A stretch of 54,199 nucleotides of DNA from an uncultured virus (IMG/VR IMGVR_UViG_3300028569_000044) (IMGVR_UViG_3300028569_000044:1-54199), one strand, 5' to 3'; counted from the stretch's first letter, positions 5,903 to 49,943 are shown. The notes: a model not told the origin generated them from the sequence alone. A program made the numbers and translations.

Positions 5903-6546
5903 GGTTTAATAAACAACAAATTCTCGTAAGTGATTTGTTGACCACTAGTTACACTTTCAATACAACGGATGTAATCGAATTTAAGTTCTTTAGTTAGAAC
6001 ATTCATTACATCCTCTTTTTTGCATCCGCCAATATTAATATCAATTAAAGCAACTTCACAAATGATCACTTTAGCTTTACTAAAAGTATTTATACCGCCA
6101 CGGATAATGTCTAGTTCACTGCCTTGAGTATCTATTTTGATAAGATCGTATGTACCCGTTACAACATCATCCAGTTTATAGACAGGCAAAGTTTCTGTGA
6201 TTAAATGTTCTCCTTCATAAAGAGGATTTACTTCTTTATAGATACTATTACCAGTACAAATGGGACTCCATTTGGTTTTGTAATAGGGAGTGGTACTATT
6301 ATCTTTACCCAACAGTTTTATTTGATAATTGTAATTTTTTAACTTGTAGACTGTTTCACATTCACTATTACCTTCAATTAACATGATATCGGATGCAGGC
6401 CAAAACTGCCGAAATACATCGGCAGTTTGACAAACACTTGCTCCAATATCTAATATTCTTTGTGGGGTAAATCCACTGTTCTTTAATAATTTACAAGTAT
6501 CTTCAAAGAAATCGTAGGTATAGTTACTAAGTTCATTTACTTTCAT
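5899..6546 (-). CDS. FkbM-family methyltransferase
   Basis: ILDIGA, LDD, LIKIDTQGSELDIIRG motifs; probable start MKVNEL at 6546. Confidence 0.85.
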   Translation of the reverse strand: MKVNELSNYTYDFFEDTCKLLKNSGFTPQRILDIGASVCQTADVFRQFWPASDIMLIEGNSECETVYKLKNYNYQIKLLGKDNSTTPYYKTKWSPICTGNSIYKEVNPLYEGEHLITETLPVYKLDDVVTGTYDLIKIDTQGSELDIIRGGINTFSKAKVIICEVALIDINIGGCKKEDVMNVLTKELKFDYIRCIESVTSGQQITYENLLFIKP

Positions 6547-6547
6547 A

Positions 6548-7390
6548 TTATAATAATATCCAACCTTTAACAACATTTCGTTTTCGATTGCATAATCCTG
6601 AAATGTTACTTTTTATATTAAATTCAGTTTTTAACTGATATTTTGTACAATATTTATGTAAATTTAAATTTTTATTGTAAAAGTGATAAATTGTAGGATC
6701 GTATGCTGGATTGTTAATACCTTTAGTTCTAATAGATAACTTTCTTGAAAATTCATCGCTCATTTTTCTACCTTTTAATTTTTTAGATATCAATTCTTTT
6801 GTCTCATTATTTCTAGTTTTTCCATATCCCCAATGTTTTTCACCTTTTCTTGAAAAACTCATTTTTGATTTAGCAATATTTGTATGTTTTCTTCCTCTAT
6901 TAGCGTTGCTTATTTTTTCTTTCATTTCTTCTGTTATTTTTAACTTAAAAGCATCGTATCTTTGATTATAATGACTATCAATTTTGTTTTCAAAATCGGA
7001 TTTTATCTTATCTAAATATATTTGTTCAAGTCTCAATAAATCATTTTTATTATCTACACATTCTACGGCGAGAAATTCAAACTCATGTTTTCCATATTTA
7101 TTCCAAGCATTTTGCAAATGATCGTTTTCATGTAAATTATTATTTAATTTATAACGATGTGTTATCCATCTTTTTCTAAAACAAACTGTACTTCCTATAT
7201 AATACTTACCACTTTGTTTATGTATTATTTTATATATCCCCCCTTTTTTTATAATATCTTTCAAGTGATTTTTCTCTACATCGTTTTTTATTTCGGTTGT
7301 AGTAACGCATTTGTCTGTCTTTCCGTGCTTGTAATTTTTCTGATTCGGTAATATACTTTCTCTTTCTTCCCATATAATAGTATCTTTCAT
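6548..7390 (-). CDS. GIY-YIG homing endonuclease with NUMOD3-like repeats
   Basis: GIYKI...YYIGS...RW..H...L....H.N..LQNAWNKYG; HT...K.KMS repeats; true start uncertain. Confidence 0.85.
   Translation of the reverse strand: MKDTIIWEERESILPNQKNYKHGKTDKCVTTTEIKNDVEKNHLKDIIKKGGIYKIIHKQSGKYYIGSTVCFRKRWITHRYKLNNNLHENDHLQNAWNKYGKHEFEFLAVECVDNKNDLLRLEQIYLDKIKSDFENKIDSHYNQRYDAFKLKITEEMKEKISNANRGRKHTNIAKSKMSFSRKGEKHWGYGKTRNNETKELISKKLKGRKMSDEFSRKLSIRTKGINNPAYDPTIYHFYNKNLNLHKYCTKYQLKTEFNIKSNISGLCNRKRNVVKGWILL
7230..7373 (-). CDS. 47 aa basic 'MGRK' leader ORF overlapping the GIY-YIG gene (not in ORF track)
   Basis: Hand translation MGRKRKYITESEKLQARKDRQMRYYNRNKKRCREKSLERYYKKRGDI*, similar to ORFs at 9808 and 13265. 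Confidence 0.65.
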   Translation of the reverse strand: MGRKRKYITESEKLQARKDRQMRYYNRNKKRCREKSLERYYKKRGDI

Positions 7391-7431
7391 GTTAATATAT
7401 ATTATATAAGTAGAGAAAAAGTAGAGAGAAA

Positions 7432-7698
7432 TTAATAAGTAGGATCTCCGTATATGTTATATTCACGGATTGGTTCTGGTACAATATCTTCTTCTACAGT
7501 CTTGATAACATATAGTTTGCTATCCATAGGAGCCAATCTATATTCACACTTTTGTTTGGTTTCCATGAAATAGGCTTCTAATGTTTCGGTTAGACTATTA
7601 TGTATAATTTTACGACTGTCGGTACGTAGTGTCCATCTATCGCCAGGTGGTACTCTAGTAGCAATCAATTCATTGTGTTCTGTAATTTTTGTAGCCAT
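7432..7698 (-). CDS. Hypothetical phage protein
   Basis: 88 aa ORF in tightly packed - strand run. Confidence 0.6.
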   Translation of the reverse strand: MATKITEHNELIATRVPPGDRWTLRTDSRKIIHNSLTETLEAYFMETKQKCEYRLAPMDSKLYVIKTVEEDIVPEPIREYNIYGDPTY

Positions 7699-7704
7699 AA
7701 TATA

Positions 7705-7986
7705 TTATCGGGGTTTGACAAAGAATATTTTGTGCATTCCTGTCATATAAAAAGTATTCAAATCCATATTCAACGCTTTGCCTTCTAACTCACCAGGCCA
7801 AAAGCCAGTCCATCTCGCAAATTGTTTATCGTGGTTTTCACAATCACAACCATATTTCTGACCACCACATTCACTGCATCTTTCAATGTCACACTTTTTC
7901 TTATGTGGTTTGCCAGCAACAACTTTGCAACTAAAACAATTGTCTAGTTCCACTTTCTGACACACTGGAGTTTGTTTCTTTTTCAT
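7705..7986 (-). CDS. Cys-rich hypothetical protein (putative Zn-binding)
   Basis: CxxC...H...C...CxxC.....CxC..H pattern. Confidence 0.6.
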   Translation of the reverse strand: MKKKQTPVCQKVELDNCFSCKVVAGKPHKKKCDIERCSECGGQKYGCDCENHDKQFARWTGFWPGELEGKALNMDLNTFYMTGMHKIFFVKPR

Positions 7987-7988
7987 AA

Positions 7989-9729
7989 TTAACAACAATG
8001 ACCCTTTTTATCATCTGCGGTAAAACTATTAAGATGATAATTACTGGCACGTATATCACGTAATCCATATAGTTCTCGGTACATATCGTATACAATATGA
8101 TCCAAATCTTTTACTGTCATAGGAATGCTTTTGGTCTTATCTACTTCTTGCATTTTTAAACAATATTTTTTGATAATAGAATCAATTTGTAAATCAACAA
8201 TTTGTTCTTTCATCAATTTTTAGTAGTGTTAATTATTTTACCGTCACAATTATAATAGGCTCTATAATAATTGGTGTAAATCTTATACACAGTATTAGTT
8301 GACGGTTCAATCATACTATAAGTAATATATTGATTATTAATAGCGTGTACCTTGCTACAATCTGGTAGATTTTCTAACGCTCTATTATAACTATATCTTA
8401 GATACATTCCACTGGCACAACCAGTACACAACAATACGATAATCAATAAATTCTTCATTCTGTTAACTCACGTTCTTCCACTGAATAATTATGACTGTCT
8501 TTGTACATATCACGATATTTTTCAGCATTTTCTTTCTTGAGATACACCTTCTCAATCGCCAGATCGTTTCCTCTATATGACATAATTAGATATACCTTAA
8601 GCTTTGGTGGCTCTACTGTCATAGCAGTCAAAAGAATTGCTGCTAGCCCCCCCACTATAATTTTATTAAAATGATTCATATTTGCTTAGTTTGTTCTTAT
8701 AACGTTGAATGATAATGTGATCTTCATCCATATGATTGTTAGCTTTAACTATTTCTTTACTGAAACGTTCCACTTCATCACATAGATAACGAATATCTTC
8801 ACATAGTTTTGCATCAATTGAAACATTACAATTATTGCTTGTGAATTCTCGTAGTCTACTAATTACTTCTTTGTTAGTCTTCATTTGCTGAATAAATTAT
8901 TTTGTCAACTGTAATACCCTTCTTAGAAGATTTGGGACCATATAATGCTCCATATTGATTTCTGCTATTGATGTAAGTGATTAAATCTTTCTTAATAACT
9001 TCAGCATCAAGATCATCAAAATTTGCGGGTAGGTTAACTTTTAAATAATATTTTGGTTTACTCATAGAATTTTACCAGTGATGTATAATGTTTACGATAA
9101 CAAAAGCGCATGTAATAAAGTTTACCAGAACAATGGTGAACCTCAAGATAAAACTAGCAAGAGCATAATTTACAGGTAGTACAGGCACATCTGGCTTACA
9201 TTCATCTGTAACACCTACACGATGGTCAATTGTTCTTGCTAACGTTAAGAAAAATTTATTGGTCGTCATTTTCGTTGGTAAGAATAAAAAATCCACTAAT
9301 CATTAGTATCAATCCAACAATACACAATACATAATATACTGTATCAACATTCATATAATGAGAAACCTCACAATTTGCAGATCACCATACTCATTCTTTG
9401 TTTCAAGAATTACATCAGGATGAGGCCGGTCACAGCTAAGATATACCTTAGCATTAGGAATATTCAATTCCTTAATCATCTTCTTTTCCACTGCGTTTTT
9501 AACCCAATCAATAATATCTTTTGTGTTTACATTAGCCATAATTTTAATTTCCCATCCAATTGCTTACATTCTCAGGTCCATTTTGCGTATGAATACCCAA
9601 ATACTTTACTTTGGTTAAATTCATAGGCATCTTGATTCGTTTCCAATCCCATAATGATGGCAAATCACTGTCATCATCTGATTCCCATTCAATGTCCAAT
9701 ATAATTCTAGCAGTTTTTGTTTCATTCAT
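7989..9729 (-). other. Run of eight small hypothetical ORFs (7989-8216, 8213-8458 lipoprotein-like, 8455-8679, 8666-8884, 8874-9065, 9072-9296, 9351-9539, 9544-9729)
   Basis: Abutting or overlapping start/stop codons on one strand; 8213-8458 has a signal peptide with LCTGC lipobox-like motif. Confidence 0.55.
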
Positions 9730-9807
9730 AATTCCATAATACAACGAAAATGATTTAAGTCAAGATTTTTTGACGTTTTATTCTATGACAAACTATTTAT
9801 TATTGTT

Positions 9808-9963
9808 ATGGGGAGAAAAAAATTAAACAAAACTAAAGATGAATTACTTGAACAACAACGAAATCGTGCAAAAAGATATTATCAACGACACAAGCAAAGA
9901 CTTAACAAAAAATCAATGCAGAAATATTGGGAAAATAAGCGGAATTTACAAAATAGTAAATAA
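9808..9963 (+). CDS. 51 aa basic 'MGRK' leader ORF overlapping the GIY-YIG gene (not in ORF track)
   Basis: MGRKKLNKTKDELLEQQRNRAKRYYQRHKQRLNKKSMQKYWENKRNLQNSK*; ATG follows TATTTAT motif; differences from the 13265 copy are mostly synonymous in this frame. Confidence 0.75.
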   Translation: MGRKKLNKTKDELLEQQRNRAKRYYQRHKQRLNKKSMQKYWENKRNLQNSK

Positions 9964-10633
9964 AATTGATGGGAAATATTACGTTGGTAGTAGTAAACAT
10001 ATCTATAAAAGATGGAACGCACATGTGCGTTTATTGAATAACAATTGTCATCATAATGATTATTTACAAAATGTTTGGAAAAAGTATGGTAGTAATGCAT
10101 TTGGATTTACAATAGTTGAAGTAACAACTTATGATGAAACATTTTTGATTGAACAAAAGTATTTAGATATAGCAAAGTTGGAACAAGATAAATGTTATAA
10201 TTTAAACTTTGAATCTAAAGGTGGATGTGTAAGTAACTATACAAAAGAAAAAATGAGATTAATCAAAATTAATCATTATAAAAATCCAGAAAATAGAAAA
10301 AAGATAAGTTTAAAATTAAAAGGAATCCCTCTTTCTGAGGAAACAAAGAGAAAAATGAGTATATCAAGAACCGGAGAAAAACATTTTCGTTATGGTAAAA
10401 AACTTACACTTGAACATAAAAATAAATTGAGTGAATCTCATAAAGGCACTAAAAATCCGTGGAGTGATAGAAATATTTATATTTGTTATAATGAATTAAC
10501 AAAAATAAAAGTTACAGGCACACGATATGAACTAAGTAAATTAATGAATTTAAAGCAAGATACCACTAATTATTTAATAAGAAAACAAACTAAAAAAACC
10601 CGTTGTGGATGGGTATTAATTGATCATTCATAA
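9839..10633 (+). CDS. GIY-YIG homing endonuclease with NUMOD3-like repeats
   Basis: SGIYKI...YYVGSS...RW..H; LSEETKRKMS and EHKNKLSES repeats. Confidence 0.88.
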   Translation: MNYLNNNEIVQKDIINDTSKDLTKNQCRNIGKISGIYKIVNKIDGKYYVGSSKHIYKRWNAHVRLLNNNCHHNDYLQNVWKKYGSNAFGFTIVEVTTYDETFLIEQKYLDIAKLEQDKCYNLNFESKGGCVSNYTKEKMRLIKINHYKNPENRKKISLKLKGIPLSEETKRKMSISRTGEKHFRYGKKLTLEHKNKLSESHKGTKNPWSDRNIYICYNELTKIKVTGTRYELSKLMNLKQDTTNYLIRKQTKKTRCGWVLIDHS

Positions 10634-11469
10634 TCACGGATAGTGACCACATATGGGAATCTGGGCACTTCATCTACTGGTGTTAAATTAAAATATTTAA
10701 CTGTAGCTTGTTTACCGATATATTCATTTTTGTTAGAAAGTAATTCTTTTAAGTACGATCTTTGACCCTTAATATTACTATGGAACTCAATATCCTTATG
10801 ATTCTTGAATACCATATGTCCAGCCATACCACTCTTGTTACCTACCCCCTCAACAATGTCAAGAATCTTGAATTCACTATCTTGAAATTCTTTGCGCTTG
10901 AGTAGGTATTTGCTGCGTTTGTTTTCATATGGTCCGTCTGTACGAACCATCTGACCTTCGTAACCTTCGTCAATGTACTTTTCATACAACTCATTTAAAT
11001 GTGTAATCGTGTCCACAAGGTGAGTCGGAACACGACGAACCACATTGTTATTAACAAGATAAGTAGTAATGTCATCATTACGATCACTAAAAGTCTTCTG
11101 TACAATCCAGTCATATACCCAATATTGAATATTCTTTGCACTCTCTGTCAGATCTTCTGGTGTAGGTTTGGTCTTTTTTACCAAACTACAAATAGCATTA
11201 AAGTCATTGGCAAACTTATCAGCATACAACTCACCATCAAGAATTGCATTGGGGAACTTATCAAAGAAAGGTTCTAACGCTTTAAGAACGTGTGGAACTG
11301 AATGAAATTCTTTACCATTTCGGCTAAAAATTCCTTTCTTTGATACAATTGCTCTACAGTTGTGTACCAATACTCCATTTGCAAAAAAGTTGTGGTTGTC
11401 TTGAATTTCTAAATCATATTTGTCAAGACTCTCGATTTTTTTGATTGATTTAATCTTTACAGTTTTCAT
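10624..11469 (-). CDS. ATP-dependent DNA ligase C-terminal part preceded by a 37 aa C-intein
   Basis: YDLEIQDNHNFFANGVLVHN|C (intein blocks F/G) then CRA...SRNGK...LDGELY...YDW...EGQM...KRS..LLKRK...PRFP. Confidence 0.92.
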   Translation of the reverse strand: MKTVKIKSIKKIESLDKYDLEIQDNHNFFANGVLVHNCRAIVSKKGIFSRNGKEFHSVPHVLKALEPFFDKFPNAILDGELYADKFANDFNAICSLVKKTKPTPEDLTESAKNIQYWVYDWIVQKTFSDRNDDITTYLVNNNVVRRVPTHLVDTITHLNELYEKYIDEGYEGQMVRTDGPYENKRSKYLLKRKEFQDSEFKILDIVEGVGNKSGMAGHMVFKNHKDIEFHSNIKGQRSYLKELLSNKNEYIGKQATVKYFNLTPVDEVPRFPYVVTIRDYE

Positions 11470-12343
11470 CTATTATTCTTTTTATTTTATCAAACTTTTT
11501 TAAAATGTCAAGCTGCCATAAAACTATTACTTTATAGCCAAAATCTTCAATCTGTTTAGTTCTAGCGTTGTCAAATTCCCAAATTTCTTTAACAGTTTTA
11601 GTACCACCCCATTTATAAATTAAATCTGCTGACTTATATATTTTTGGATTTGCGTGCCATTTATCTCCATTTATCTCCAATACTATTTTTTTTGATTCGA
11701 TCAAAATGTCAACTTGTGGCGCATATATTCTATCTAAATAACCATTGTATTTTGTAAATTTATTTTTAACTTCACTTACATAATGTATATTATGTTCTTC
11801 TAAATATTTTTCAATTTTTTTATGAATTTTACTTCTACGCCCATAATTTCTCTCATACCAAGGTAAATTTACAGGAGTATATACTCCATATTTTTCATGC
11901 AATGTTTCTCTACTTTTATTTTTAACATTTTCACATTGAAAAACATTTGACACTCCATATTTTCTTTTTACAGTCCTATTTCTCTTTTTATAACATTTTG
12001 TATTTTTTGATAAAGCATTTTCAGTACCGTACTTTTTAATACAAGTATTTTTATATAAATTTCTTACATTAGGGTTATTTGCTTGTTCTGTTATTGAATT
12101 TGTTTTAATACCATATTCACGACAGAATGAAATAATAGAATCTGCACCTGTTATATATCCCTTTGGTTTTAAAATATTTAAACAGATATAATTAGAACTA
12201 TATTTTTTTTCAAGGACCAATTCAATTAGTAATTCTTTCGTTAAAAACGAACGAATATATAATCGTCTCTTAGGATTTTGAGAAGGCAAATTTAAAATTT
12301 TAATGTCTAATGTTTGATTATTAAATTTTTCTAATTCAGTCAT
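11450..12343 (-). CDS. Free-standing Vsr/DUF559-like endonuclease between the split-intein halves
   Basis: Three KYG repeats, then VDILI..KKIVLEINGDKWH...D..R......GYKVIVLWQ. Confidence 0.75.
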   Translation of the reverse strand: MTELEKFNNQTLDIKILNLPSQNPKRRLYIRSFLTKELLIELVLEKKYSSNYICLNILKPKGYITGADSIISFCREYGIKTNSITEQANNPNVRNLYKNTCIKKYGTENALSKNTKCYKKRNRTVKRKYGVSNVFQCENVKNKSRETLHEKYGVYTPVNLPWYERNYGRRSKIHKKIEKYLEEHNIHYVSEVKNKFTKYNGYLDRIYAPQVDILIESKKIVLEINGDKWHANPKIYKSADLIYKWGGTKTVKEIWEFDNARTKQIEDFGYKVIVLWQLDILKKFDKIKRIIDENCKD

Positions 12344-12392
12344 ATACTAATAAATAGTATATTCAAGATAAATTAGATGGATAATATTAAAT

Positions 12393-13061
12393 TTATTCTA
12401 ACATTAGAACATCGTTTTCTGTTAGTTCATCTACTCTTCGCCAACATTTAAGTCTCGGTAAATAAATTCTATGATTTCCGGTTACTTTAAGAGATTTACC
12501 ATTATTTAAATCAATTTGATGCCATTGGGTTGAAGATTCATTTATATCTACGCCGTTTTTAAATCTTCCAACAATATTTTTATATTCAAAATTATTGTTT
12601 ATTTCATTGAAAGTTTTAACTTTGCACTCAATGTTATTATTCACGATATCACTGATGTATAGTTCTCCAACATCTGTAGAAACAAGTGTATCTTGACTTA
12701 AACACCCATCCAACTTGGGTTGACTATAAATTGGATACTTAAGATCATCCTTATAATCGTCGTAGTTCTTAGCAAGCATTGGCTTGGTAAAGCTGATACC
12801 ATCAATGTCATTAATCTTTTCAAAGTAACCACTTTCTTTCTTTTTCTTCCAAGTGGCTTTGGCTTCTTTTACAGCTTGATCTTCATTGGAAGTAGCATTC
12901 TTTTTGCCGGTATTTTTACCTTCACAAAGTGTCCACTCAGTGATTTGAATAGCTCCATCAAGCTGACCATAATGGGTACGATACTTGTTGCCATCAACTT
13001 CGATGGTCCAAGTTTGAATAGCACCCGTATTTGTACGGGCGAATAACATAGGTAGTTTCAT
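12393..13061 (-). CDS. ATP-dependent DNA ligase N-terminal part followed by a 103 aa N-intein
   Basis: PMLA...SQPKLDG|CLSQDTLV (block A) ... LKVTGNHRI (block B TxxH). Confidence 0.92.
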   Translation of the reverse strand: MKLPMLFARTNTGAIQTWTIEVDGNKYRTHYGQLDGAIQITEWTLCEGKNTGKKNATSNEDQAVKEAKATWKKKKESGYFEKINDIDGISFTKPMLAKNYDDYKDDLKYPIYSQPKLDGCLSQDTLVSTDVGELYISDIVNNNIECKVKTFNEINNNFEYKNIVGRFKNGVDINESSTQWHQIDLNNGKSLKVTGNHRIYLPRLKCWRRVDELTENDVLMLE

Positions 13062-13071
13062 ATCTTATATA

Positions 13072-13100
13072 AGATTACCACGGTGCAATAAAAAAGTCAA
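13072..13100 (-). promoter_or_regulatory. Sigma70-like promoter of the ligase gene
   Basis: TTGACT-17nt-TAATCT with extended TG, about 10 nt upstream of ATG. Confidence 0.7.
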
Positions 13101-13101
13101 C

Positions 13102-13203
13102 TCAATTTTTCACAATTTCACCCTTAGCATCACTATACCACACTTCACCCACATTAAATTGCTTGACCACACTTTGACAACCACAACACGGCTTGCTGTT
13201 GGC
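13102..13203 (-). pseudogene. Orphan 3' end (33 codons) of the deaminase gene at 14186..14572
   Basis: Translates ANSKPCCGCQSVVKQFNVGEVWYSDAKGEIVKN* versus ANSKPCCGCQSVIKQFNVGEVWYSTDVGQVIKL*. Confidence 0.9.
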
Positions 13204-13264
13204 AAATGTTTTTATTTAAATATTTTTTGACGATTTATTCTATGACAAACTATTTATTAATGTT

Positions 13265-13426
13265 ATGGGAAGAAAAAAATTAAACAGAACAAAAGATGAA
13301 CTACTTGAACAACAAAGAAACCGAGCAAAAAAATATTATCAACGACATAAACAAAGACTCAATGAAAAGTCAATGCAAAAATATTGGGAAAATAAGCGGA
13401 ATATACAAAATAATAAACAAGATTGA
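13265..13426 (+). CDS. 53 aa basic 'MGRK' leader ORF overlapping the GIY-YIG gene (not in ORF track)
   Basis: MGRKKLNRTKDELLEQQRNRAKKYYQRHKQRLNEKSMQKYWENKRNIQNNKQD*. Confidence 0.75.
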   Translation: MGRKKLNRTKDELLEQQRNRAKKYYQRHKQRLNEKSMQKYWENKRNIQNNKQD

Positions 13427-14180
13427 CGGTAAATATTATGTCGGAAGTAGTAAAGATATTGTCACGCCTAATATAGGCAGATGGTACATGCACAAATACG
13501 AATTAAATAAAAAAACGCATACAAATGATTATCTCCAAAATGCTTGGAATAAATATGGAGAGGATAGTTTTGAATTTATAATTGTAGAAAAATGTAACCC
13601 CGATCAATTACTAATCGTAGAACAAAAGTATTTGGATGATACTAAAAAAGAACGAAATTTATCTTATAATTTAAGTTTTATTGCTGGTAACATTGAGATG
13701 ACGAATGATGTCAGACAAAAAATCAGTGCAAAATCTCGTGCACGATTAAAAGATAAAACAAAACATCCAAATTACGATGCAAAAATATATAAATTATATA
13801 ATAGAATTACAAACGATACATTTTTAGGTACCAGACAAGATTTTATTTTAAAATACAACGATAAGCATTTTAGTATTAACCATTTAATTTCTGGAAAATT
13901 TCATTCAACCAACGGATGGACATTTGATCCGAATTATGATCTTAAAGGTAATAGGGGTAAAAATTGGACGCAAGAAAGAATAAAATCTGTTAGTGAAAAA
14001 TTTACCGGTAAAAATAATCCATCGTATGATATAACCGTACATAATTTTATCCACGAAGACGGAAGAAAAGAAACCTGTACTAAATACGAATTGTATCACA
14101 AATATAATTTAGATAAAAGTGCTCTTGCCAGAGTTATAAACAGAAAACAAAAACATACAATGTGGTGGAAATTAGAATAA
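13296..14180 (+). CDS. GIY-YIG homing endonuclease
   Basis: SGIYKI...YYVGSS...RW..H...LQNAWNKYG; N-terminal half paralogous to 9839..10633. Confidence 0.88.
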   Translation: MNYLNNKETEQKNIINDINKDSMKSQCKNIGKISGIYKIINKIDGKYYVGSSKDIVTPNIGRWYMHKYELNKKTHTNDYLQNAWNKYGEDSFEFIIVEKCNPDQLLIVEQKYLDDTKKERNLSYNLSFIAGNIEMTNDVRQKISAKSRARLKDKTKHPNYDAKIYKLYNRITNDTFLGTRQDFILKYNDKHFSINHLISGKFHSTNGWTFDPNYDLKGNRGKNWTQERIKSVSEKFTGKNNPSYDITVHNFIHEDGRKETCTKYELYHKYNLDKSALARVINRKQKHTMWWKLE

Positions 14181-14185
14181 TATTA

Positions 14186-14572
14186 TTAAAGTTTAATTAC
14201 TTGGCCAACATCTGTGCTATACCAAACTTCTCCAACATTAAATTGTTTGATTACACTTTGACATCCACAACATGGCTTGCTATTTGCCATCTTATTATTT
14301 CTATTGAATCTAATCACCACCATTTTAAAATCTTTGAGATCCTCCTTGCCGCTCTTCATACACGCATTCAACTCAGCGTGCAAACCAACAAGCTGATGGT
14401 TTTTATAATCATATTCCAAAGTCTTGGGATGACTCTTACAGCTATTTGTACCAATATGAACAATCTTACCGCAACGAATAAGAAAAGCTATGTGACTGCA
14501 CCTATGTTCTAGGTTAAGCGGACACATAGCCTTTGCAATGTCAATAGTACGGTTTAAAATCTTGATGTTCAT
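14186..14572 (-). CDS. Cytidine/deoxycytidylate deaminase-fold protein
   Basis: HAE and PCCGC zinc motifs; probable start MNIKIL at 14572. Confidence 0.75.
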   Translation of the reverse strand: MNIKILNRTIDIAKAMCPLNLEHRCSHIAFLIRCGKIVHIGTNSCKSHPKTLEYDYKNHQLVGLHAELNACMKSGKEDLKDFKMVVIRFNRNNKMANSKPCCGCQSVIKQFNVGEVWYSTDVGQVIKL

Positions 14573-23048: not shown

Positions 23049-24212
23049 GTGATAACATATAATACCAAACTTTTGAGCGATTGTCAATCTGATTTAGACG
23101 ATTTGAAGTCTATGATGATTGATCATCAAAAGATTTTTAATATTGCATCCCCTCTTCAATTTGTTGAAAAAAAGAATTCTATCGTTGTTTTACATTCAAA
23201 AGTTTACCACAATGTTCGTAAACAATTCCCCTATGTAAACTCTCAAGTCGTTATAAAAGCTGAACAAGAATGTTTAGCCTCCTATAGAAGCGTTAAATCA
23301 AATAAACACAAATTAAAAAAACCAATTGAGAAAAAGAACTTGTCTATTCGCTTGGATAAGAGATTGTATTCGTTTCCTACGGATAGATCAATAAAAATTA
23401 CAACATCAAATGGAAAAAAGAATTTCAAATTTCAATTGTATCCAAAACTTGTAGAATTATTAAATAAATACAAATATGTTGATCCATTGATTTATGTTGA
23501 AAATGGAGAAATATACATTTCGCTACCGTTTGATAATAAATCTAAAGAATCATTAAAACAAAAATTAGCTTTGGGAGTTGATATCGGAATTCGTCGTAGT
23601 GTCGCCCTTAGTGATGGACGAATCATAGTTGATAGAAAATTTAATGGAGACAAACGCAAACTTCGTCACTTAAAAGATACTTTGAAATCTAAAGGCACTA
23701 AAAGTGCTAGAAGACATCTTCACAAACTTCGTCATAAAGAAGCAAACAAAAATAGAAATCAATCTCATTTAATTGCCAATGAGGTTTTAAGAACCGAAGC
23801 AGACACTATTGTTCTAGAAAATCTCAAAGGAATTAAAGTAAAAAAACATAAATATCAAAATAAGCGTTCCATTAGCCAAGTGCCAATGTTTGAACTTCGT
23901 AGAATAATATCTTACAAGGCAGAGAATCAAGGTAAAACCGTGACTCTTGTTAGCCCTTCTTATACTTCTCAAAGAGATTCCGTAACTGGAAGAATTGAAG
24001 GAGAAAGAAGAGGTTGTAGATTTTACTCTAAAAACGATCTTATTTATGATGCGGATGTTAACGCTGCAATCAATATAGCCAAAACATCCAAACTTCCCGT
24101 ATCACAAACTAACCGTTTGACTTATGGGCAGGTTGTCGTCAACCAACCAATCGTATGTAAGCCCTCTGTTGCACAAACAGCGGCATTACAAGCCCCTATG
24201 GCTTTAGCCTAG
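23049..24212 (+). CDS. tnpB: RNA-guided nuclease TnpB
   Basis: RuvC-I LGVDIG, RuvC-II IVLENL, YTSQ, RuvC-III DADVNAAINI. Confidence 0.92.
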   Translation: MITYNTKLLSDCQSDLDDLKSMMIDHQKIFNIASPLQFVEKKNSIVVLHSKVYHNVRKQFPYVNSQVVIKAEQECLASYRSVKSNKHKLKKPIEKKNLSIRLDKRLYSFPTDRSIKITTSNGKKNFKFQLYPKLVELLNKYKYVDPLIYVENGEIYISLPFDNKSKESLKQKLALGVDIGIRRSVALSDGRIIVDRKFNGDKRKLRHLKDTLKSKGTKSARRHLHKLRHKEANKNRNQSHLIANEVLRTEADTIVLENLKGIKVKKHKYQNKRSISQVPMFELRRIISYKAENQGKTVTLVSPSYTSQRDSVTGRIEGERRGCRFYSKNDLIYDADVNAAINIAKTSKLPVSQTNRLTYGQVVVNQPIVCKPSVAQTAALQAPMALA

Positions 24213-34791: not shown

Positions 34792-35499
34792 ATGAATGAT
34801 AAATTAAAACAAAAAGAATACTTTCAATCTTACTATCAAAAAAATAAAGATAAATTAAAAAAAAGAAGAAACGAATTGTATTATGAAAAAGCAGAACATA
34901 AGAAAAGAAATTTTAGAAAAAATATGACTTCTGAAGAGTTAGAATTGTTAAAAACCAGAAAGTGCCCAGATTGTAACAATATACTCAAATACAACAATAT
35001 AAGTAATAAACAACGAGCGGATAAAATAAATGCTAAATGTTATACGTGTCAAGGTGAAATGTTATCATTAAAAAGAAGAGGAGTTCGTCTTACAAAAGAA
35101 GAACGAGATAAACTAAAAATACAAGAACAAATTAAAAATGTTATTATGTGGAAGGAGAAATTAAGACTGATAAGAATAAAACAGATAAAAAATAATGGAT
35201 CGGTTCATTTTCCAAATTTTAATAAAAACGCATGTTTGTATTTTGATAAACTAAATGAAGAAAAAGGTTGGAAATTACAACATGCATTAAACGGTGGGGA
35301 AATTCAAATTGGAGGATATTTTTTAGATGCATATGATGTACATAATAATATAGTCATAGAATATGACGAATTAAAACATAAAATTGATAAACGAAGAAAT
35401 AAAAAAGATAGGGAAAAAGAAAAATACCTTATAGATAAATTAAAATGTAAATTTTACAGATATTTAGAATATGAAAATAAGTTAGTTGAAATATTATAA
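34792..35499 (+). CDS. Free-standing endonuclease with C-terminal PD-(D/E)xK/Vsr-like domain
   Basis: CPDC...CYTC; HALNGGE..IGGYFLDAYD...NIVIEYDE..H.........D.E; probable start MNDKLK after TATTTAT. Confidence 0.7.
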   Translation: MNDKLKQKEYFQSYYQKNKDKLKKRRNELYYEKAEHKKRNFRKNMTSEELELLKTRKCPDCNNILKYNNISNKQRADKINAKCYTCQGEMLSLKRRGVRLTKEERDKLKIQEQIKNVIMWKEKLRLIRIKQIKNNGSVHFPNFNKNACLYFDKLNEEKGWKLQHALNGGEIQIGGYFLDAYDVHNNIVIEYDELKHKIDKRRNKKDREKEKYLIDKLKCKFYRYLEYENKLVEIL

Positions 35500-37377: not shown

Positions 37378-37610
37378 AGTATGATCTTTTCCTTCTCAAA
37401 ATATTCAGTAACTTCATCATTCCAAGGCTTGTTAATTTCATCCAACTTATTAGCAATAGAACGCATTATGTGAGATGTCCAGCAACCATCATTACTGGGC
37501 CAAAAGTAAAAATAACCATCAACATCCATAATAAGTTCACCAACTAAATGATTATTCGGAGTCAGTACGTGGAACTTCTGGTTGTTGATCTGCTTGTAAA
37601 TTAGATTCAT
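37374..37610 (-). CDS. Hypothetical phage protein
   Basis: DVDGYFYFWP...W....R.IA.KLDE.N..W. Confidence 0.55.
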   Translation of the reverse strand: MNLIYKQINNQKFHVLTPNNHLVGELIMDVDGYFYFWPSNDGCWTSHIMRSIANKLDEINKPWNDEVTEYFEKEKIIL

Positions 37611-38052
37611 TTTTTTCTAAAACAATATTTGTAGTACCCTCGTAATTTACCCCACCAATAACATTAATAATAAATTTGTTGGTGATGGTTCCCTCCAAGT
37701 TACTAGTAACAATATAACTCTCTTGTACGCTTCCGTCAAGGAAAAATACTATCTTTGTAGCACTTGATTGTAGTATCTTCAAGTCATTTGTAACAGCATC
37801 CATCAAATAAACATCATCAAATGAACTGTACATATTATAGTTTTCATCAAACGTAAGTTCAAACTCACGTTGTTGAAATGCTGCTTGATGTTTGAGATTA
37901 ATCAATAGTGTCTTTAAGTTTTCTCTAGCTTCATAGTATCTGGTATTACCAACCAAACTATCATAGTTAATAACAATTGCACCAATAATACCAAGCAATA
38001 TGGTTATGGCTAATACTAACTCTATTAGTGTAAATGCTTTATTGTTTTTCAC
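37552..38052 (-). CDS. Prepilin-type N-terminal cleavage/methylation domain protein
   Basis: KA|FTLIEL followed by a hydrophobic helix. Confidence 0.8.
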   Translation of the reverse strand: MKNNKAFTLIELVLAITILLGIIGAIVINYDSLVGNTRYYEARENLKTLLINLKHQAAFQQREFELTFDENYNMYSSFDDVYLMDAVTNDLKILQSSATKIVFFLDGSVQESYIVTSNLEGTITNKFIINVIGGVNYEGTTNIVLEKNESNLQADQQPEVPRTDSE

Positions 38053-38296
38053 TTATTAGTTTTAACTTTTGTTGACGGGTCAATTGTTTGATTTGATACT
38101 CTCTCTTCATTGCTTCACTCTTACTATCAAAACATTCAGTGTATACTAATCTAACAGGTAATCGTGTCTTAGTATATTTAGCACCACACCCTCTAGAATG
38201 ATCACTAACTCGTTTTTCAACATTATTAGAGTAACCACAATAGAGGGTGTTGTCCCCACAAATAACTATATAGCAACAATGATTCTTAACTATCAC
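38039..38296 (-). CDS. Small GIY-YIG nuclease (UPF0213/YazA-like)
   Basis: YIV.C.DNTLYCGYSNN.EKRV..H..G.GAKYTK.RLPV.LVY.E.F..KSEAMKRE..IK. Confidence 0.88.
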   Translation of the reverse strand: MIVKNHCCYIVICGDNTLYCGYSNNVEKRVSDHSRGCGAKYTKTRLPVRLVYTECFDSKSEAMKREYQIKQLTRQQKLKLISEKQ

Positions 38297-45381: not shown

Positions 45382-45568
45382 TGCGTAATTGATTGTTTAA
45401 TTGACTGGATAATTGATCGTATAATTGAGTGATTAATTGATTGCGTAATTGAAGGTTTAATCGATCTTCTAATTGATCTTCTAATTGACGGTTTAATTGA
45501 CTGTGTAATTGATCGTATAATTGATTCTGTAATTGAATTTTATGTTTTATTGGTTTTGTGAAATTCAT
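45353..45568 (-). CDS. QLxx-repeat micro-ORF 1
   Basis: Probable start MNFTKPIK at 45568. Confidence 0.7.
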   Translation of the reverse strand: MNFTKPIKHKIQLQNQLYDQLHSQLNRQLEDQLEDRLNLQLRNQLITQLYDQLSSQLNNQLRNELQQSTIK

Positions 45569-45580
45569 TGTGTAATAAAT

Positions 45581-45643
45581 AAAAGCCTCCAATAATGTGT
45601 GATATTGGAGGCCTCCAATAATGTGTGATATTGGAGGCTTTTT
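45581..45643. terminator. Tandemly duplicated terminator-like hairpin
   Basis: 26-bp unit GCCTCCAATAATGTGTGATATTGGAG twice (45585-45610, 45611-45636), flanked by A and T tracts. Confidence 0.75.
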
Positions 45644-48649: not shown

Positions 48650-49943
48650 TTGGAGGAATTCTCACTATGATCTCAATATATAACCTCCACATTACTTTGT
48701 CAAACATAAAATTATTTTCATTATTTTTCACTTTTTGTATTTAAAATATATACTTATATGAAGTGATAACATATAATACACAACTTTTAATGAAAAATCA
48801 AGAAGACTTTGATAGTTTAAAGTCAATTCTTGAAATGCATAGAGTTGTATTTAACTTTGCTTCACAACTCCAATTCAAAGAAACAAAAAATAGTTTAGTA
48901 GTTTTACATTCTAAAGTATATAATAACATTCGTAAACAATATTCAAATATACCATCTCAAGTTATCATTAAAGCAGAACAAGAATGTTTATCAAGTTATA
49001 AATCTACAAAGTCAAATAAACATAAATTAAAAAAATCAATTGAAAAGAAAAATCTTTCAATGCGGTTGGATAAAAGACTTTATTCAAAAAACAAAAGTGA
49101 TAAATATTCAATTCGTATAACCACCACTTCTGGAAGACAATCTTTTAAATTTGTAGTATATCCAAAACTAAAAGAATTATTGGACAAGTATGAATATACA
49201 GATCCTCTAATTTATGAAAATGATGGTAAATTATTTATATCATTTACATTTGATAATAAACCCAACGAACAATTAAAACAAAAACTAGCATTAGGAGTTG
49301 ATATTGGCATTCGTAGAAATGTCGCTTGTAGTGATGGTAGAATAGTCATTGATAGAAAATTCAACGGGGATAAACGCAAACTTCGTCATCTAAAAGATAA
49401 TCTCAAGTCTAAAGGCACCAAAAGTGCTAGAAGACATCTTGGTAAATTAAGACATAAAGAAGCTAACAAAAATAGAAATCAAACTCATTTAATAGCTAAT
49501 TTAGTATTAAAAACAGAAGCAGATACTATTGTATTAGAAAATTTAAATGGTATAAAGAAAAAGAAACATAAATATCAAAATAAGCGTTCAATTGGACAAG
49601 TGCCAATGTTTGAACTTCGTAGAGTAATATCCTATAAGGCGGAGAACCTTGGTAAATCGGTTCTACTAGTTCGCCCTTATTATACATCACAGATTGATAG
49701 TGTTACTGGCAATCGTGATGGAGAAAGAAGAGGTTGTAGATTTTATTCTAAGAACGGACTTATTTATGATGCGGACATTAATGCAGCAATTAATATTGCT
49801 AAATTGTCCAAACTTCCCGTATCACAGACTAATTACCTGACTTATGGGCAGGCTGTTGTCAATCAGCCAATCGTATGTAAGCCCTCTGTTGCACAAACAG
49901 CGGCATTACAAGCCCCTATGGCTTTAGCCTAGGGGTTGTTGAC
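48650..49943 (+). mobile_element. tnpB-only (IS1341-like) derivative of the same IS200/IS605 family
   Basis: Right-end hairpin identical to 24193-24215; no tnpA; left boundary inferred. Confidence 0.75.
48763..49932 (+). CDS. tnpB: RNA-guided nuclease TnpB (paralog of 23049..24212)
   Basis: LGVDIG, IVLENL, YTSQ, DADINAAINI. Confidence 0.92.
   Translation: MITYNTQLLMKNQEDFDSLKSILEMHRVVFNFASQLQFKETKNSLVVLHSKVYNNIRKQYSNIPSQVIIKAEQECLSSYKSTKSNKHKLKKSIEKKNLSMRLDKRLYSKNKSDKYSIRITTTSGRQSFKFVVYPKLKELLDKYEYTDPLIYENDGKLFISFTFDNKPNEQLKQKLALGVDIGIRRNVACSDGRIVIDRKFNGDKRKLRHLKDNLKSKGTKSARRHLGKLRHKEANKNRNQTHLIANLVLKTEADTIVLENLNGIKKKKHKYQNKRSIGQVPMFELRRVISYKAENLGKSVLLVRPYYTSQIDSVTGNRDGERRGCRFYSKNGLIYDADINAAINIAKLSKLPVSQTNYLTYGQAVVNQPIVCKPSVAQTAALQAPMALA

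Follow-up and report, generated by a model that had tools for sequence, protein, structure and literature searches.

How is a nuclease gene translated when a second, conserved reading frame lies across its 5' end? The question is raised by an uncultured viral contig (IMGVR_UViG_3300028569_000044), whose whole stretch of 54,199 nt was analysed and is called the window here, and in which three GIY-YIG endonuclease genes are each overlapped by a short, previously unannotated open reading frame (ORF) starting with MGRK, the leader. An initial annotation had proposed either that the nuclease is made at low level as a frameshift fusion to the leader or that the leader is a co-inherited regulator or inhibitor. 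All three loci belong to a mobile cassette that is widespread and, judging from their sequences and those of their relatives, leader and nuclease are probably two overlapping genes with conventional initiation and not the two halves of a ribosomal frameshift product.

The leader frame, its family and its mobility

The three copies, c1 to c3, are made up of the following features.

6548–7390, minus strand: c1 nuclease ORF, GIY-YIG and NUMOD3; starts with an ATG at 7390, 17 nt ahead of that of the leader (−6 codons)
7230–7373, minus strand: c1 leader ORF, MGRKRKY..., 47 codons; leader profile E 1.8e-17 in a six-frame scan of the window
7391–7428, minus strand: c1 promoter-like element, a putative promoter with the direct repeat TCTCTACTT twice, then a TATATAAT/TATATATT box
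9772–9800, plus strand: c2 promoter-like element, TGAC(G) twice at a 15-nt period, a T-rich spacer and a TATTTAT box
9808–9963, plus strand: c2 leader ORF, 51 codons; leader profile E 1.9e-26
9839–10633, plus strand: c2 nuclease ORF, GIY-YIG and NUMOD3, +1 frame, ATG at leader codon 10
13229–13257, plus strand: c3 promoter-like element, with the architecture of c2
13265–13426, plus strand: c3 leader ORF, 53 codons; leader profile E 1.5e-26
13296–14180, plus strand: c3 nuclease ORF, GIY-YIG, +1 frame, ATG at leader codon 10

The three leader peptides are related, as originally described, and align without gaps over 43 codons. Their nuclease ORFs start 31 nt downstream of the leader start in c2 and c3 (9839 − 9808 and 13296 − 13265) and 17 nt upstream of it in c1 (7390 and 7373), offsets that agree with the reported +1 relation at all three loci; the leader stops fall inside or just past the GIY codons, also as reported. 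The c1 nuclease ORF engulfs the entire leader and meets no +1-frame stop within it, and in c2 and c3 there is a +1-frame stop at leader codon 5, followed by the nuclease ATG at codon 10. The c1, c2 and c3 nucleases match Pfam PF01541 at 33.6, 33.3 and 32.2 bits (cut-off 22.6), and NUMOD3 was found at 65.4 bits in c1 and 47.3 bits in c2; the Pfam scan detected no NUMOD3 in the c3 nuclease.

Over their first 43 codons, c2 and c3 differ at 15 nucleotides, of which 3, 2 and 10 are at leader codon positions 1, 2 and 3. Of the resulting codon changes in the leader frame, 12 are synonymous and 3 non-synonymous; the nuclease frame has 1 and 13, which bears out the contrast between the two frames that the initial annotation had drawn from these copies. 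To collect relatives, the leader alignment was run against viral contigs (38 loci), and metagenome contigs were scanned as well (the best 80 of 235 matches). With L036 dropped as a partial match without an ATG and the 3 window copies added, the set comprised 120 loci, 99 of them non-identical (3 from the window and 96 from viral and metagenome contigs). Frames were compared in 36 loci over an ungapped 42-codon core; L007, L017 and L037 were dropped from this comparison as duplicates, L027 because of a one-residue gap and L036 as partial. Pairwise amino acid identity among the 22 loci with an upstream nuclease ATG was 0.553 in the leader frame, 0.360 in the +1 frame and 0.370 in the +2 frame, which served as control; for the 14 other loci the values were 0.493, 0.306 and 0.336. 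Codons with a single difference across the 36 loci were synonymous or non-synonymous in the ratio 1716:1075 in the leader frame; the corresponding ratios are 636:2715 for +1 and 550:2712 for +2. It can be seen that no amino acid constraint is detectable on the nuclease-frame reading of the leader DNA, which resembles the non-coding +2 control. Because of the amino acid identity and the synonymous excess in its own frame, we conclude from these comparisons that the leader is protein-coding and under purifying selection, and that the earlier claim that it is the selected frame is upheld over the 36 loci.

An exhaustive search of 1.84 billion proteins with the leader profile returned 528 cluster representatives at E ≤ 0.001, so that the match across the three loci is more than chance. 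Of the best 150 representatives, 141 are of at most 100 amino acids, and 385 short clusters (25–105 amino acids) match the leader, as against 2 of 7999 scored longer candidates; on these counts the leader is almost always a free-standing short ORF. It is 44–61 codons long, except in the 114-codon in-frame L084 and at one locus without a downstream ORF, and its core, MGRKKLNRT.EEL.EQ...R.KRYY.RNK......M.RYWE, is conserved to about codon 43 and divergent beyond, with M1, G2, R3, Y25 and Y40 invariant. No family in Pfam or PHROGs matches the leaders, and a sequence search of the PDB with the leader profile gave one chance-level match (E 0.77). The best named cluster in the ESM Atlas, 14% of whose members have an AT-hook, reached 0.88, below the lead threshold of 0.9, and was not used.

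The genes downstream of the leaders are unrelated to one another. They encode GIY-YIG nucleases with NUMOD3, LEM-3-like GIY-YIG proteins, a DUF7487 nuclease, treble-clef zinc-finger proteins, an HNH protein with NUMOD3 (the HNH match just below cut-off), a protein with a Vsr-like match below cut-off and an N6/N4 DNA methylase (131.8 bits). A search for in-frame leader–nuclease fusions, suggested by the initial annotation as a check, found rare examples (P0001, P0170, P0190, P0223 and L084), of which P0170, P0190 and P0223, joined to nuclease-type sequence, are among the 9 of the best 150 representatives that exceed 100 amino acids. One further case lies in the window.

34792–35499, plus strand: in-frame relative with a truncated leader-like N-terminus, a CxxC zinc ribbon and a nuclease-like C-terminus

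The leader-like in-frame start of this ORF, which had been pointed out before, is supported by a weak match to the leader profile (E 8.8e-4, 15.5 bits, among 1054 six-frame window segments) and by homology along its whole length to P0001 (38% identity, E 6e-47), a 237-residue protein with a full in-frame MGRKK leader. The ORF contains no Pfam family and has a TATTTAT box 6 nt upstream of its ATG.

Four longer proteins (P0144, P0201, P0208 and P0261; 232–393 amino acids) carry two leader-like units at their N-terminus (MGRKKLY.TEEER...YY.R), then an unrelated helical region, and the leader motif may be a domain of wider occurrence. A Pfam scan of P0144 and P0261 gave no match, and the composition of all four is unlike that of phage proteins. 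P0193 and P0195 look like mis-called ORFs. The downstream ORFs of L006, L009, L024 and L087, together with P0002, consist largely of further YY..NK-type repeats that resemble the two half-repeats of the leader, with a period of about 16 residues, and by this likeness the leader may be one unit of a repeat family.

Lake metagenomes contain contigs from which the cassette is missing. Only joints in metagenome contigs at ≥90% likeness were used here, and the depths of cassette and flanks in run X4 were left aside, as contig depths cannot rank genes.

13123–14208: the c3 cassette with its promoter-like element, its leader and its nuclease, absent from one contig of lake run X4

The X4 joint runs from 13122 to 14209 and skips 1086 nt, with 2 letters between and a side of 30; a second joint in the same run links 13201 to 14321 with 35 other letters between and a side of 52. 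One X23 contig joins 9718 to 10765 across c2. Short-sided joints in X3 and X10 (6941 to 12833 and 9917 to 11468, sides of 20–21) were set aside as likely artefacts of paralogy. These joints are moderate evidence that promoter-like element, leader and nuclease form one presence/absence unit in lake metagenomes. With a catalytic domain, NUMOD in c1 and c2 and presence/absence polymorphism, the genes are candidate free-standing GIY-YIG homing endonucleases.

Initiation of the nuclease gene

A long downstream ORF is present in 93 of the 99 loci and missing from 6. It lies in the +1 frame in 91 of the 93, so that the frame relation among homologues is not random. In 68 loci, c1 among them, the +1 frame is free of stops in the leader and reaches back to an ATG 2–21 codons upstream of the leader ATG; 5 loci likewise have no stop, with the first ATG within the leader, and the +1 frame is thus stop-free throughout the leader in 73 of the 93. 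A further 17, c2 and c3 included, have one or more +1-frame stops in the leader and then an ATG. Single loci have a GTG as the only start, a +2-frame ORF with an ATGA overlap, and a long ORF in frame with the leader. None of the 93 long ORFs is without a start codon. Starts inside the leader are at codon 10 in c2 and c3 and at codons 39–59 in some relatives, and where the start is near the leader's 3' end there are 1–5 +1-frame stops (first 37 viral-contig loci and the three window copies).

The open +1 frame is reflected in the codons of the leader. Within a set of 37 loci the +1 frame had no stop in 24, and the +2 frame had at least one stop in all 37. When leaders were resampled synonymously with the codon usage of the window, the probability of an open frame was ≤0.16 in 22 of the 24 open loci, with a median of about 0.03. 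Leucine is encoded by CTT or CTC at 66 of 101 positions in leaders, against 101 of 529 in 21 window ORFs, and arginine by CGA at 97 of 285, against 17 of 212 in window ORFs. Judged by this usage, the +1 frame is kept open by biased codon choice in the leader, that is, it is selected to stay stop-free.

These results bear on the proposal that leader and nuclease are joined just before GIY by a programmed +1 frameshift or by transcriptional slippage, giving a low-level fusion like InsAB' in IS1. The +1 relation in 91 of 93 loci fits such a mechanism, and so does the A7G6 tract (AAA AAA AGG GGG) exactly at the c1 junction, part of the run AAA AAA AGG GGG GAT ATA TAA that had been singled out as slip-prone and is indeed present in c1. 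Many GIY loci have AAG or CAG and then CGG at the junction, CGG and AGG being rare in the window (4 and 7 of 212 arginine codons). The in-frame proteins P0001, P0170, P0190, P0223, L084 and window ORF 34792 can be counted on the same side, together with L009, in which the YY..NK repeat pattern runs on into the +1 ORF. However, the nuclease frame has a start codon at every locus, and at the 68 loci described above it is open across the leader to an upstream ATG. Since ordinary translation from an upstream ATG needs the frame to be kept open upstream of the junction, and a shift at the junction needs none of this, frameshifting is not supported. Nor is a shift site conserved: read directly, the junction codons are AAG CGG, CAG CGG, AAA AGG or AAT GTC, tryptophan replaces the junction arginine in L047, L048 and L056 (tails ENKWNIQ and ENKWNL, from which TGG and a nuclease serine AGT are deduced), L026 has AAT GTC GGG and an ATG two codons before GIY, and loci other than GIY have none of the junction motifs. 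The rare arginine codons found at the junction in most GIY loci can be accounted for by dual coding, in that AAG CGG supplies a Ser-Gly (AGC GGN) to the nuclease alongside a basic tail to the leader. In c2 and c3 a +1-frame stop immediately follows the A7 run, and transcriptional slippage there was rejected on this ground. The RNA structure downstream of the junction is inconsistent among the three window copies (z −2.82, −0.04 and −0.78), and a tRNA scan of the window found no gene, hence no phage-encoded frameshift-suppressor tRNA within it. What is left in support of frameshifting is the A7G6 run of c1 and the natural in-frame fusions, and we consider a frameshift origin of the nuclease very unlikely. 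Initiation at ATA or ATT just before GIY was also considered and dropped, because these codons are not conserved (ACT GGG where the leader has TAC TGG) and upstream ATGs exist.

At some loci the leader has translation signals of its own. Several loci with a longer 5' region (L031–33, L061 and L113) carry AGGAG or GAGAGG 7–10 nt before the leader ATG, a motif that, where it occurs, is a direct sign of the leader's own translation, and L028 has an ATGA stop/start overlap. A subfamily including L005, L006, L014, L018, L026, L051 and L055 has a conserved TGTCAACA...AAACGAAA stretch between the nuclease-frame and leader ATGs, often followed by AAGGA; this stretch may be the ribosome-binding region of the leader or a further control site.

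We favour an account in which the cassette consists of a promoter-like element, the gene of a small basic protein of about 45 residues and, overlapping this gene in the +1 frame, a free-standing gene of homing-endonuclease type. Leader and nuclease would be made separately, each by ordinary initiation. The nuclease would start either inside the leader or a few codons ahead of its ATG, the latter being the case in c1 and the majority of relatives. From an upstream start the nuclease frame would be read through the whole leader, and the first 55 or so residues of the enzyme would be an overprinted, unconstrained sequence that needs only to be free of stops.

Promoter-like repeats and the possible role of the leader protein

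A TAYWTAT box is present upstream in 94 of the 99 loci. Before it stands a word of 4–9 nt that occurs twice, usually 15 nt apart, and a T-rich spacer. In c2 and c3 the element reads TTGACG...TGAC and then TATTTAT, and in c2 the leader ATG follows 7 nt after the box. The c1 repeats TCTCTACTT are at 7427–7419 and 7416–7408, with a period of 11, and the nuclease-frame ATG follows 3 nt after the TATATAAT/TATATATT box. An 18-nt core motif matches the window only at c2 and c3 (2 matches, 0.10 expected); TATTTAT by itself is no more frequent in the window than expected (50 matches, 51.4 expected).

At 79 loci the first ATG lies 3–8 nt after this −10-like hexamer; the first ATG is that of the nuclease frame in 66 loci and that of the leader in 25. 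Sigma-70-type promoter spacing puts the transcription start at or beside an ATG so placed, and because of this position the mRNA would have little or no 5' leader. Which of the two ATGs comes first would set the ratio of the two products. Elsewhere in the window, an ATG is found 4–8 nt past a TATTTAT-type box at the genes 12343 (minus), 26775 (plus), 34792 (plus), 40367 (minus) and 52283 (minus), a placement which suggests that leaderless or near-leaderless mRNAs are frequent here. A 71-codon ORF (ATG at 45568, minus strand) is preceded by a 16-nt word that occurs twice about 23 nt apart and then by a TATTTATT box (45568–45630), and this promoter-like element has no leader-type gene.

The repeat word varies across loci (TGAC, TCAC, TAAC, GTCG, CTCTAC, TTATCAT, CTATTAG and others), and its two copies at a locus agree. 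Among 74 loci, repeat identity at offset 15 is 6.28 of 10 within a locus and 4.72 of 10 between loci, with no excess at offsets 11–14 or 16–18, and at the most variable repeat column the copies agree with a frequency of 0.70 against 0.30 expected. Distinct repeat types with matching leader types occur within one genome, both in the window (c1 against c2 and c3) and on a 354-kb contig that carries L013, L019 and L022. Since different words coexist in one genome, recognition by a genome-wide factor is unlikely; among the products of the cassette, the leader alone is conserved. The variable repeat base is best predicted by residue 17 of the leader (0.82 of 1.87 bits), followed by residues 32, 21, 18 and 22. 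AlphaFold2 models the leader as a free N-terminal arm (MGRKKLNRT) and a single helix over residues 10–48 (mean pLDDT 88.2), on which residues 14, 17/18 and 21/22 would share one face. As the repeats co-vary in step with leader residues and the leader is the only conserved product, we infer that it may act as a cassette-specific DNA-binding regulator.

We think that the function of the leader is probably regulatory. That the small protein binds the two direct repeats of its own promoter, which overlap the −35 region and the spacer, and so limits expression of the nuclease is a more specific reading that the co-variation makes possible and that we put forward tentatively. The complete picture would comprise a new family of miniature DNA-binding regulators (about 45 residues, a single helix) that co-evolve with direct-repeat operators, a private circuit for each cassette, an overprinted nuclease and a leaderless or near-leaderless mRNA on which the order of ATGs sets the ratio of products; that all of these elements hold together is more doubtful still.

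Several points weigh against this interpretation, the dual-gene part included. The internal leader ATG has no Shine–Dalgarno-like motif in 58 of 73 loci, a count qualified by the poverty of such motifs window-wide, where only 7 of 49 ORFs of at least 90 codons have even a loose one upstream. An unconstrained N-terminal extension of about 55 residues is unusual on a GIY-YIG enzyme. The association between repeat and leader is inflated by shared descent, promoter and leader being adjacent. No DNA-binding family matched the leader in the Pfam, PHROG and PDB sequence searches, and one long helix by itself is not among the folds recognised as readers of direct repeats. Finally, the in-frame fusions to nucleases are equally compatible with a role beside the nuclease and with binding to the promoter.

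Such a role is the main rival. The leader would be a separate protein acting with the downstream enzyme, either as a trans-acting subunit for DNA binding or targeting or as an inhibitor that keeps the nuclease in check. In 'Rosetta-stone' fusions, HNH, GIY-YIG-like/NUMOD3 and Vsr-like nucleases have the leader domain at their N-terminus; leader and enzyme gene are strictly inherited together; and the leader is predicted to be basic and helical, as a nucleic-acid binder might be. However, its partners are of unrelated folds and include a DNA methylase, which makes a common protein–protein interface unlikely, and a partnership with the enzyme leaves unexplained the concerted promoter repeats that go in step with leader type. 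A predicted complex of leader and GIY-YIG nuclease scored 0.00 in a run without controls, which is evidence neither way. On balance we regard this role as unlikely. The region might instead be a conserved DNA or RNA element, that is, a promoter-proximal signal or an mRNA structure whose ORF is not translated. It does follow directly on the conserved promoter-like element, and the first 120 nt at the 5' end have less structure than shuffled controls (z +0.8 to +1.4), a property that selection might favour because the nuclease ORF is initiated there. Against this, changes are concentrated at third positions of the leader (1716:1075, compared with about 1:4–5 in both other frames), five residues are invariant in an ORF that stays open for 44–61 codons, a canonical ribosome-binding motif precedes the leader ATG at some loci, and in-frame protein fusions keep the same leader residues. 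An untranslated element is therefore extremely unlikely.

The surrounding contig and related systems

The window is a 54-kb viral contig with a CheckV completeness of 15% and a GC content of about 31%, and its sequence occurs in lake-water metagenomes. A megablast search with positions 6500–14500 against 50,697 phage records gave no match. The GIY-YIG content of the window is four endonuclease-type ORFs and one small ORF (38039–38296, minus strand; 85 amino acids), a stand-alone GIY-YIG domain that is the best GIY-YIG match of the contig (73.7 bits) and has neither a DNA-binding extension nor a leader. It adjoins ORF 37552–38052, whose N-terminus we take to resemble a type IV pilin signal. The window also has a transposase-like ORF and further ORFs that are homing-endonuclease-like. 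Two ORFs of 387 and 389 codons (23049–24212 and 48763–49932, both plus strand) start with GTG, share 22 of their first 24 bases and have similar sequence upstream; the first matches PHROG transposase families (E 1.3e-37), and by these likenesses the two are probably copies of an insertion element within the phage.

The c2 and c3 cassettes flank on either side a DNA ligase gene that is split in two pieces (10624–13061, minus strand) with an endonuclease gene between them. The piece at 12393–13061 (minus strand) encodes the N-terminal part and ends in an intein-like segment; the piece at 10624–11469 (minus strand) begins with an intein C-terminal segment, followed by the adenylation and OB domains of the ligase. 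Both Intein_splicing matches are below the Pfam cut-off (23.8 and 30.9 against 35.8 bits). A DUF7487-type endonuclease ORF sits between the pieces at 11450–12343. The split ligase matches the 'fractured gene' arrangement, the ligase case included, as set out in the relevant part of Dassa et al. 2009 (PMC2677866).

Taken together, the leaders represent an unannotated small protein family that appears as a portable 5' module of mobile nuclease or methylase genes, of which at least six unrelated kinds share it in freshwater phages. The cassettes form a large natural data set on dual coding, with hundreds of loci in which an alternative frame is open by synonymous choice alone. Gene callers usually report only the long ORF, so that about 55 N-terminal residues are mis-assigned to the nuclease and the small gene is missed. 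Should the co-variation of repeat and leader reflect binding, the cassettes would offer a compact set of operator–regulator pairs that do not cross-react, and a private control circuit for each, if true, would allow several cassettes to coexist in one jumbo-phage genome.

Homing endonucleases need low or late expression, since they otherwise harm the host genome, and the means of control known so far comprise RNA hairpins, late promoters and repression of the nuclease gene by its own product, the last exemplified by I-TevI. In layout the cassettes resemble the C proteins of restriction-modification systems, where a small gene lies directly upstream of a nuclease gene and often overlaps it. The likeness would extend to the repeated operators in the small gene's own promoter and to a control, specific to the element, of a potentially harmful nuclease. 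C proteins bind inverted C-boxes as helix-turn-helix dimers of the Xre type, whereas the leader is a predicted single helix, matches no helix-turn-helix family, is not modelled with the Xre-type fold, and is associated with direct repeats at a 15-nt period. In IS1 (InsA/InsAB') and IS3 (OrfA/OrfAB) a small DNA-binding regulator is accompanied by a frameshift fusion, and the likeness is that a gene for a small basic protein, thought to be regulatory, overlaps from the 5' side the ORF of a mobile-element enzyme in another frame. Those elements rely on a −1 shift at a slippery heptamer that is conserved, their downstream ORF having no start of its own; in the leader cassettes the enzyme ORF is in the +1 frame, no shift site is conserved, and where the enzyme ORF is present it always has its own start. 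The Rz/Rz1 genes of lambda are a gene within a gene in another frame, both presumed to be translated from one mRNA and one frame being constrained. In the present case it is the small gene that is constrained, and the N-terminal 55 or so codons of the large gene are the unconstrained overprint; moreover, the arrangement is a travelling 5' cassette of unrelated mobile nuclease genes, in which the nuclease may start on either side of the leader ATG.

The literature on homing endonucleases with overprinting or programmed frameshifting, surveyed partly by title and abstract, yielded no account of such a leader, and the passages on homing endonucleases in Atkins et al. 2016 concern only the bypassing in T4 gene 60. 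The closest parallel on the side of the nuclease genes is that in Dassa et al. 2009 (PMC2677866), whose pertinent sections describe free-standing endonuclease genes with a conserved 5' control region of their own and a late-promoter-like box near the start, their expression being thought low or late. In those sections hairpins and a TATAAATA box precede similar endonuclease genes and no upstream ORF is described. In contrast to that combination of RNA hairpins and TATAAATA box, the 5' region of the cassettes analysed here carries a conserved protein-coding ORF, placed upstream of the nuclease start or nested within the nuclease gene.

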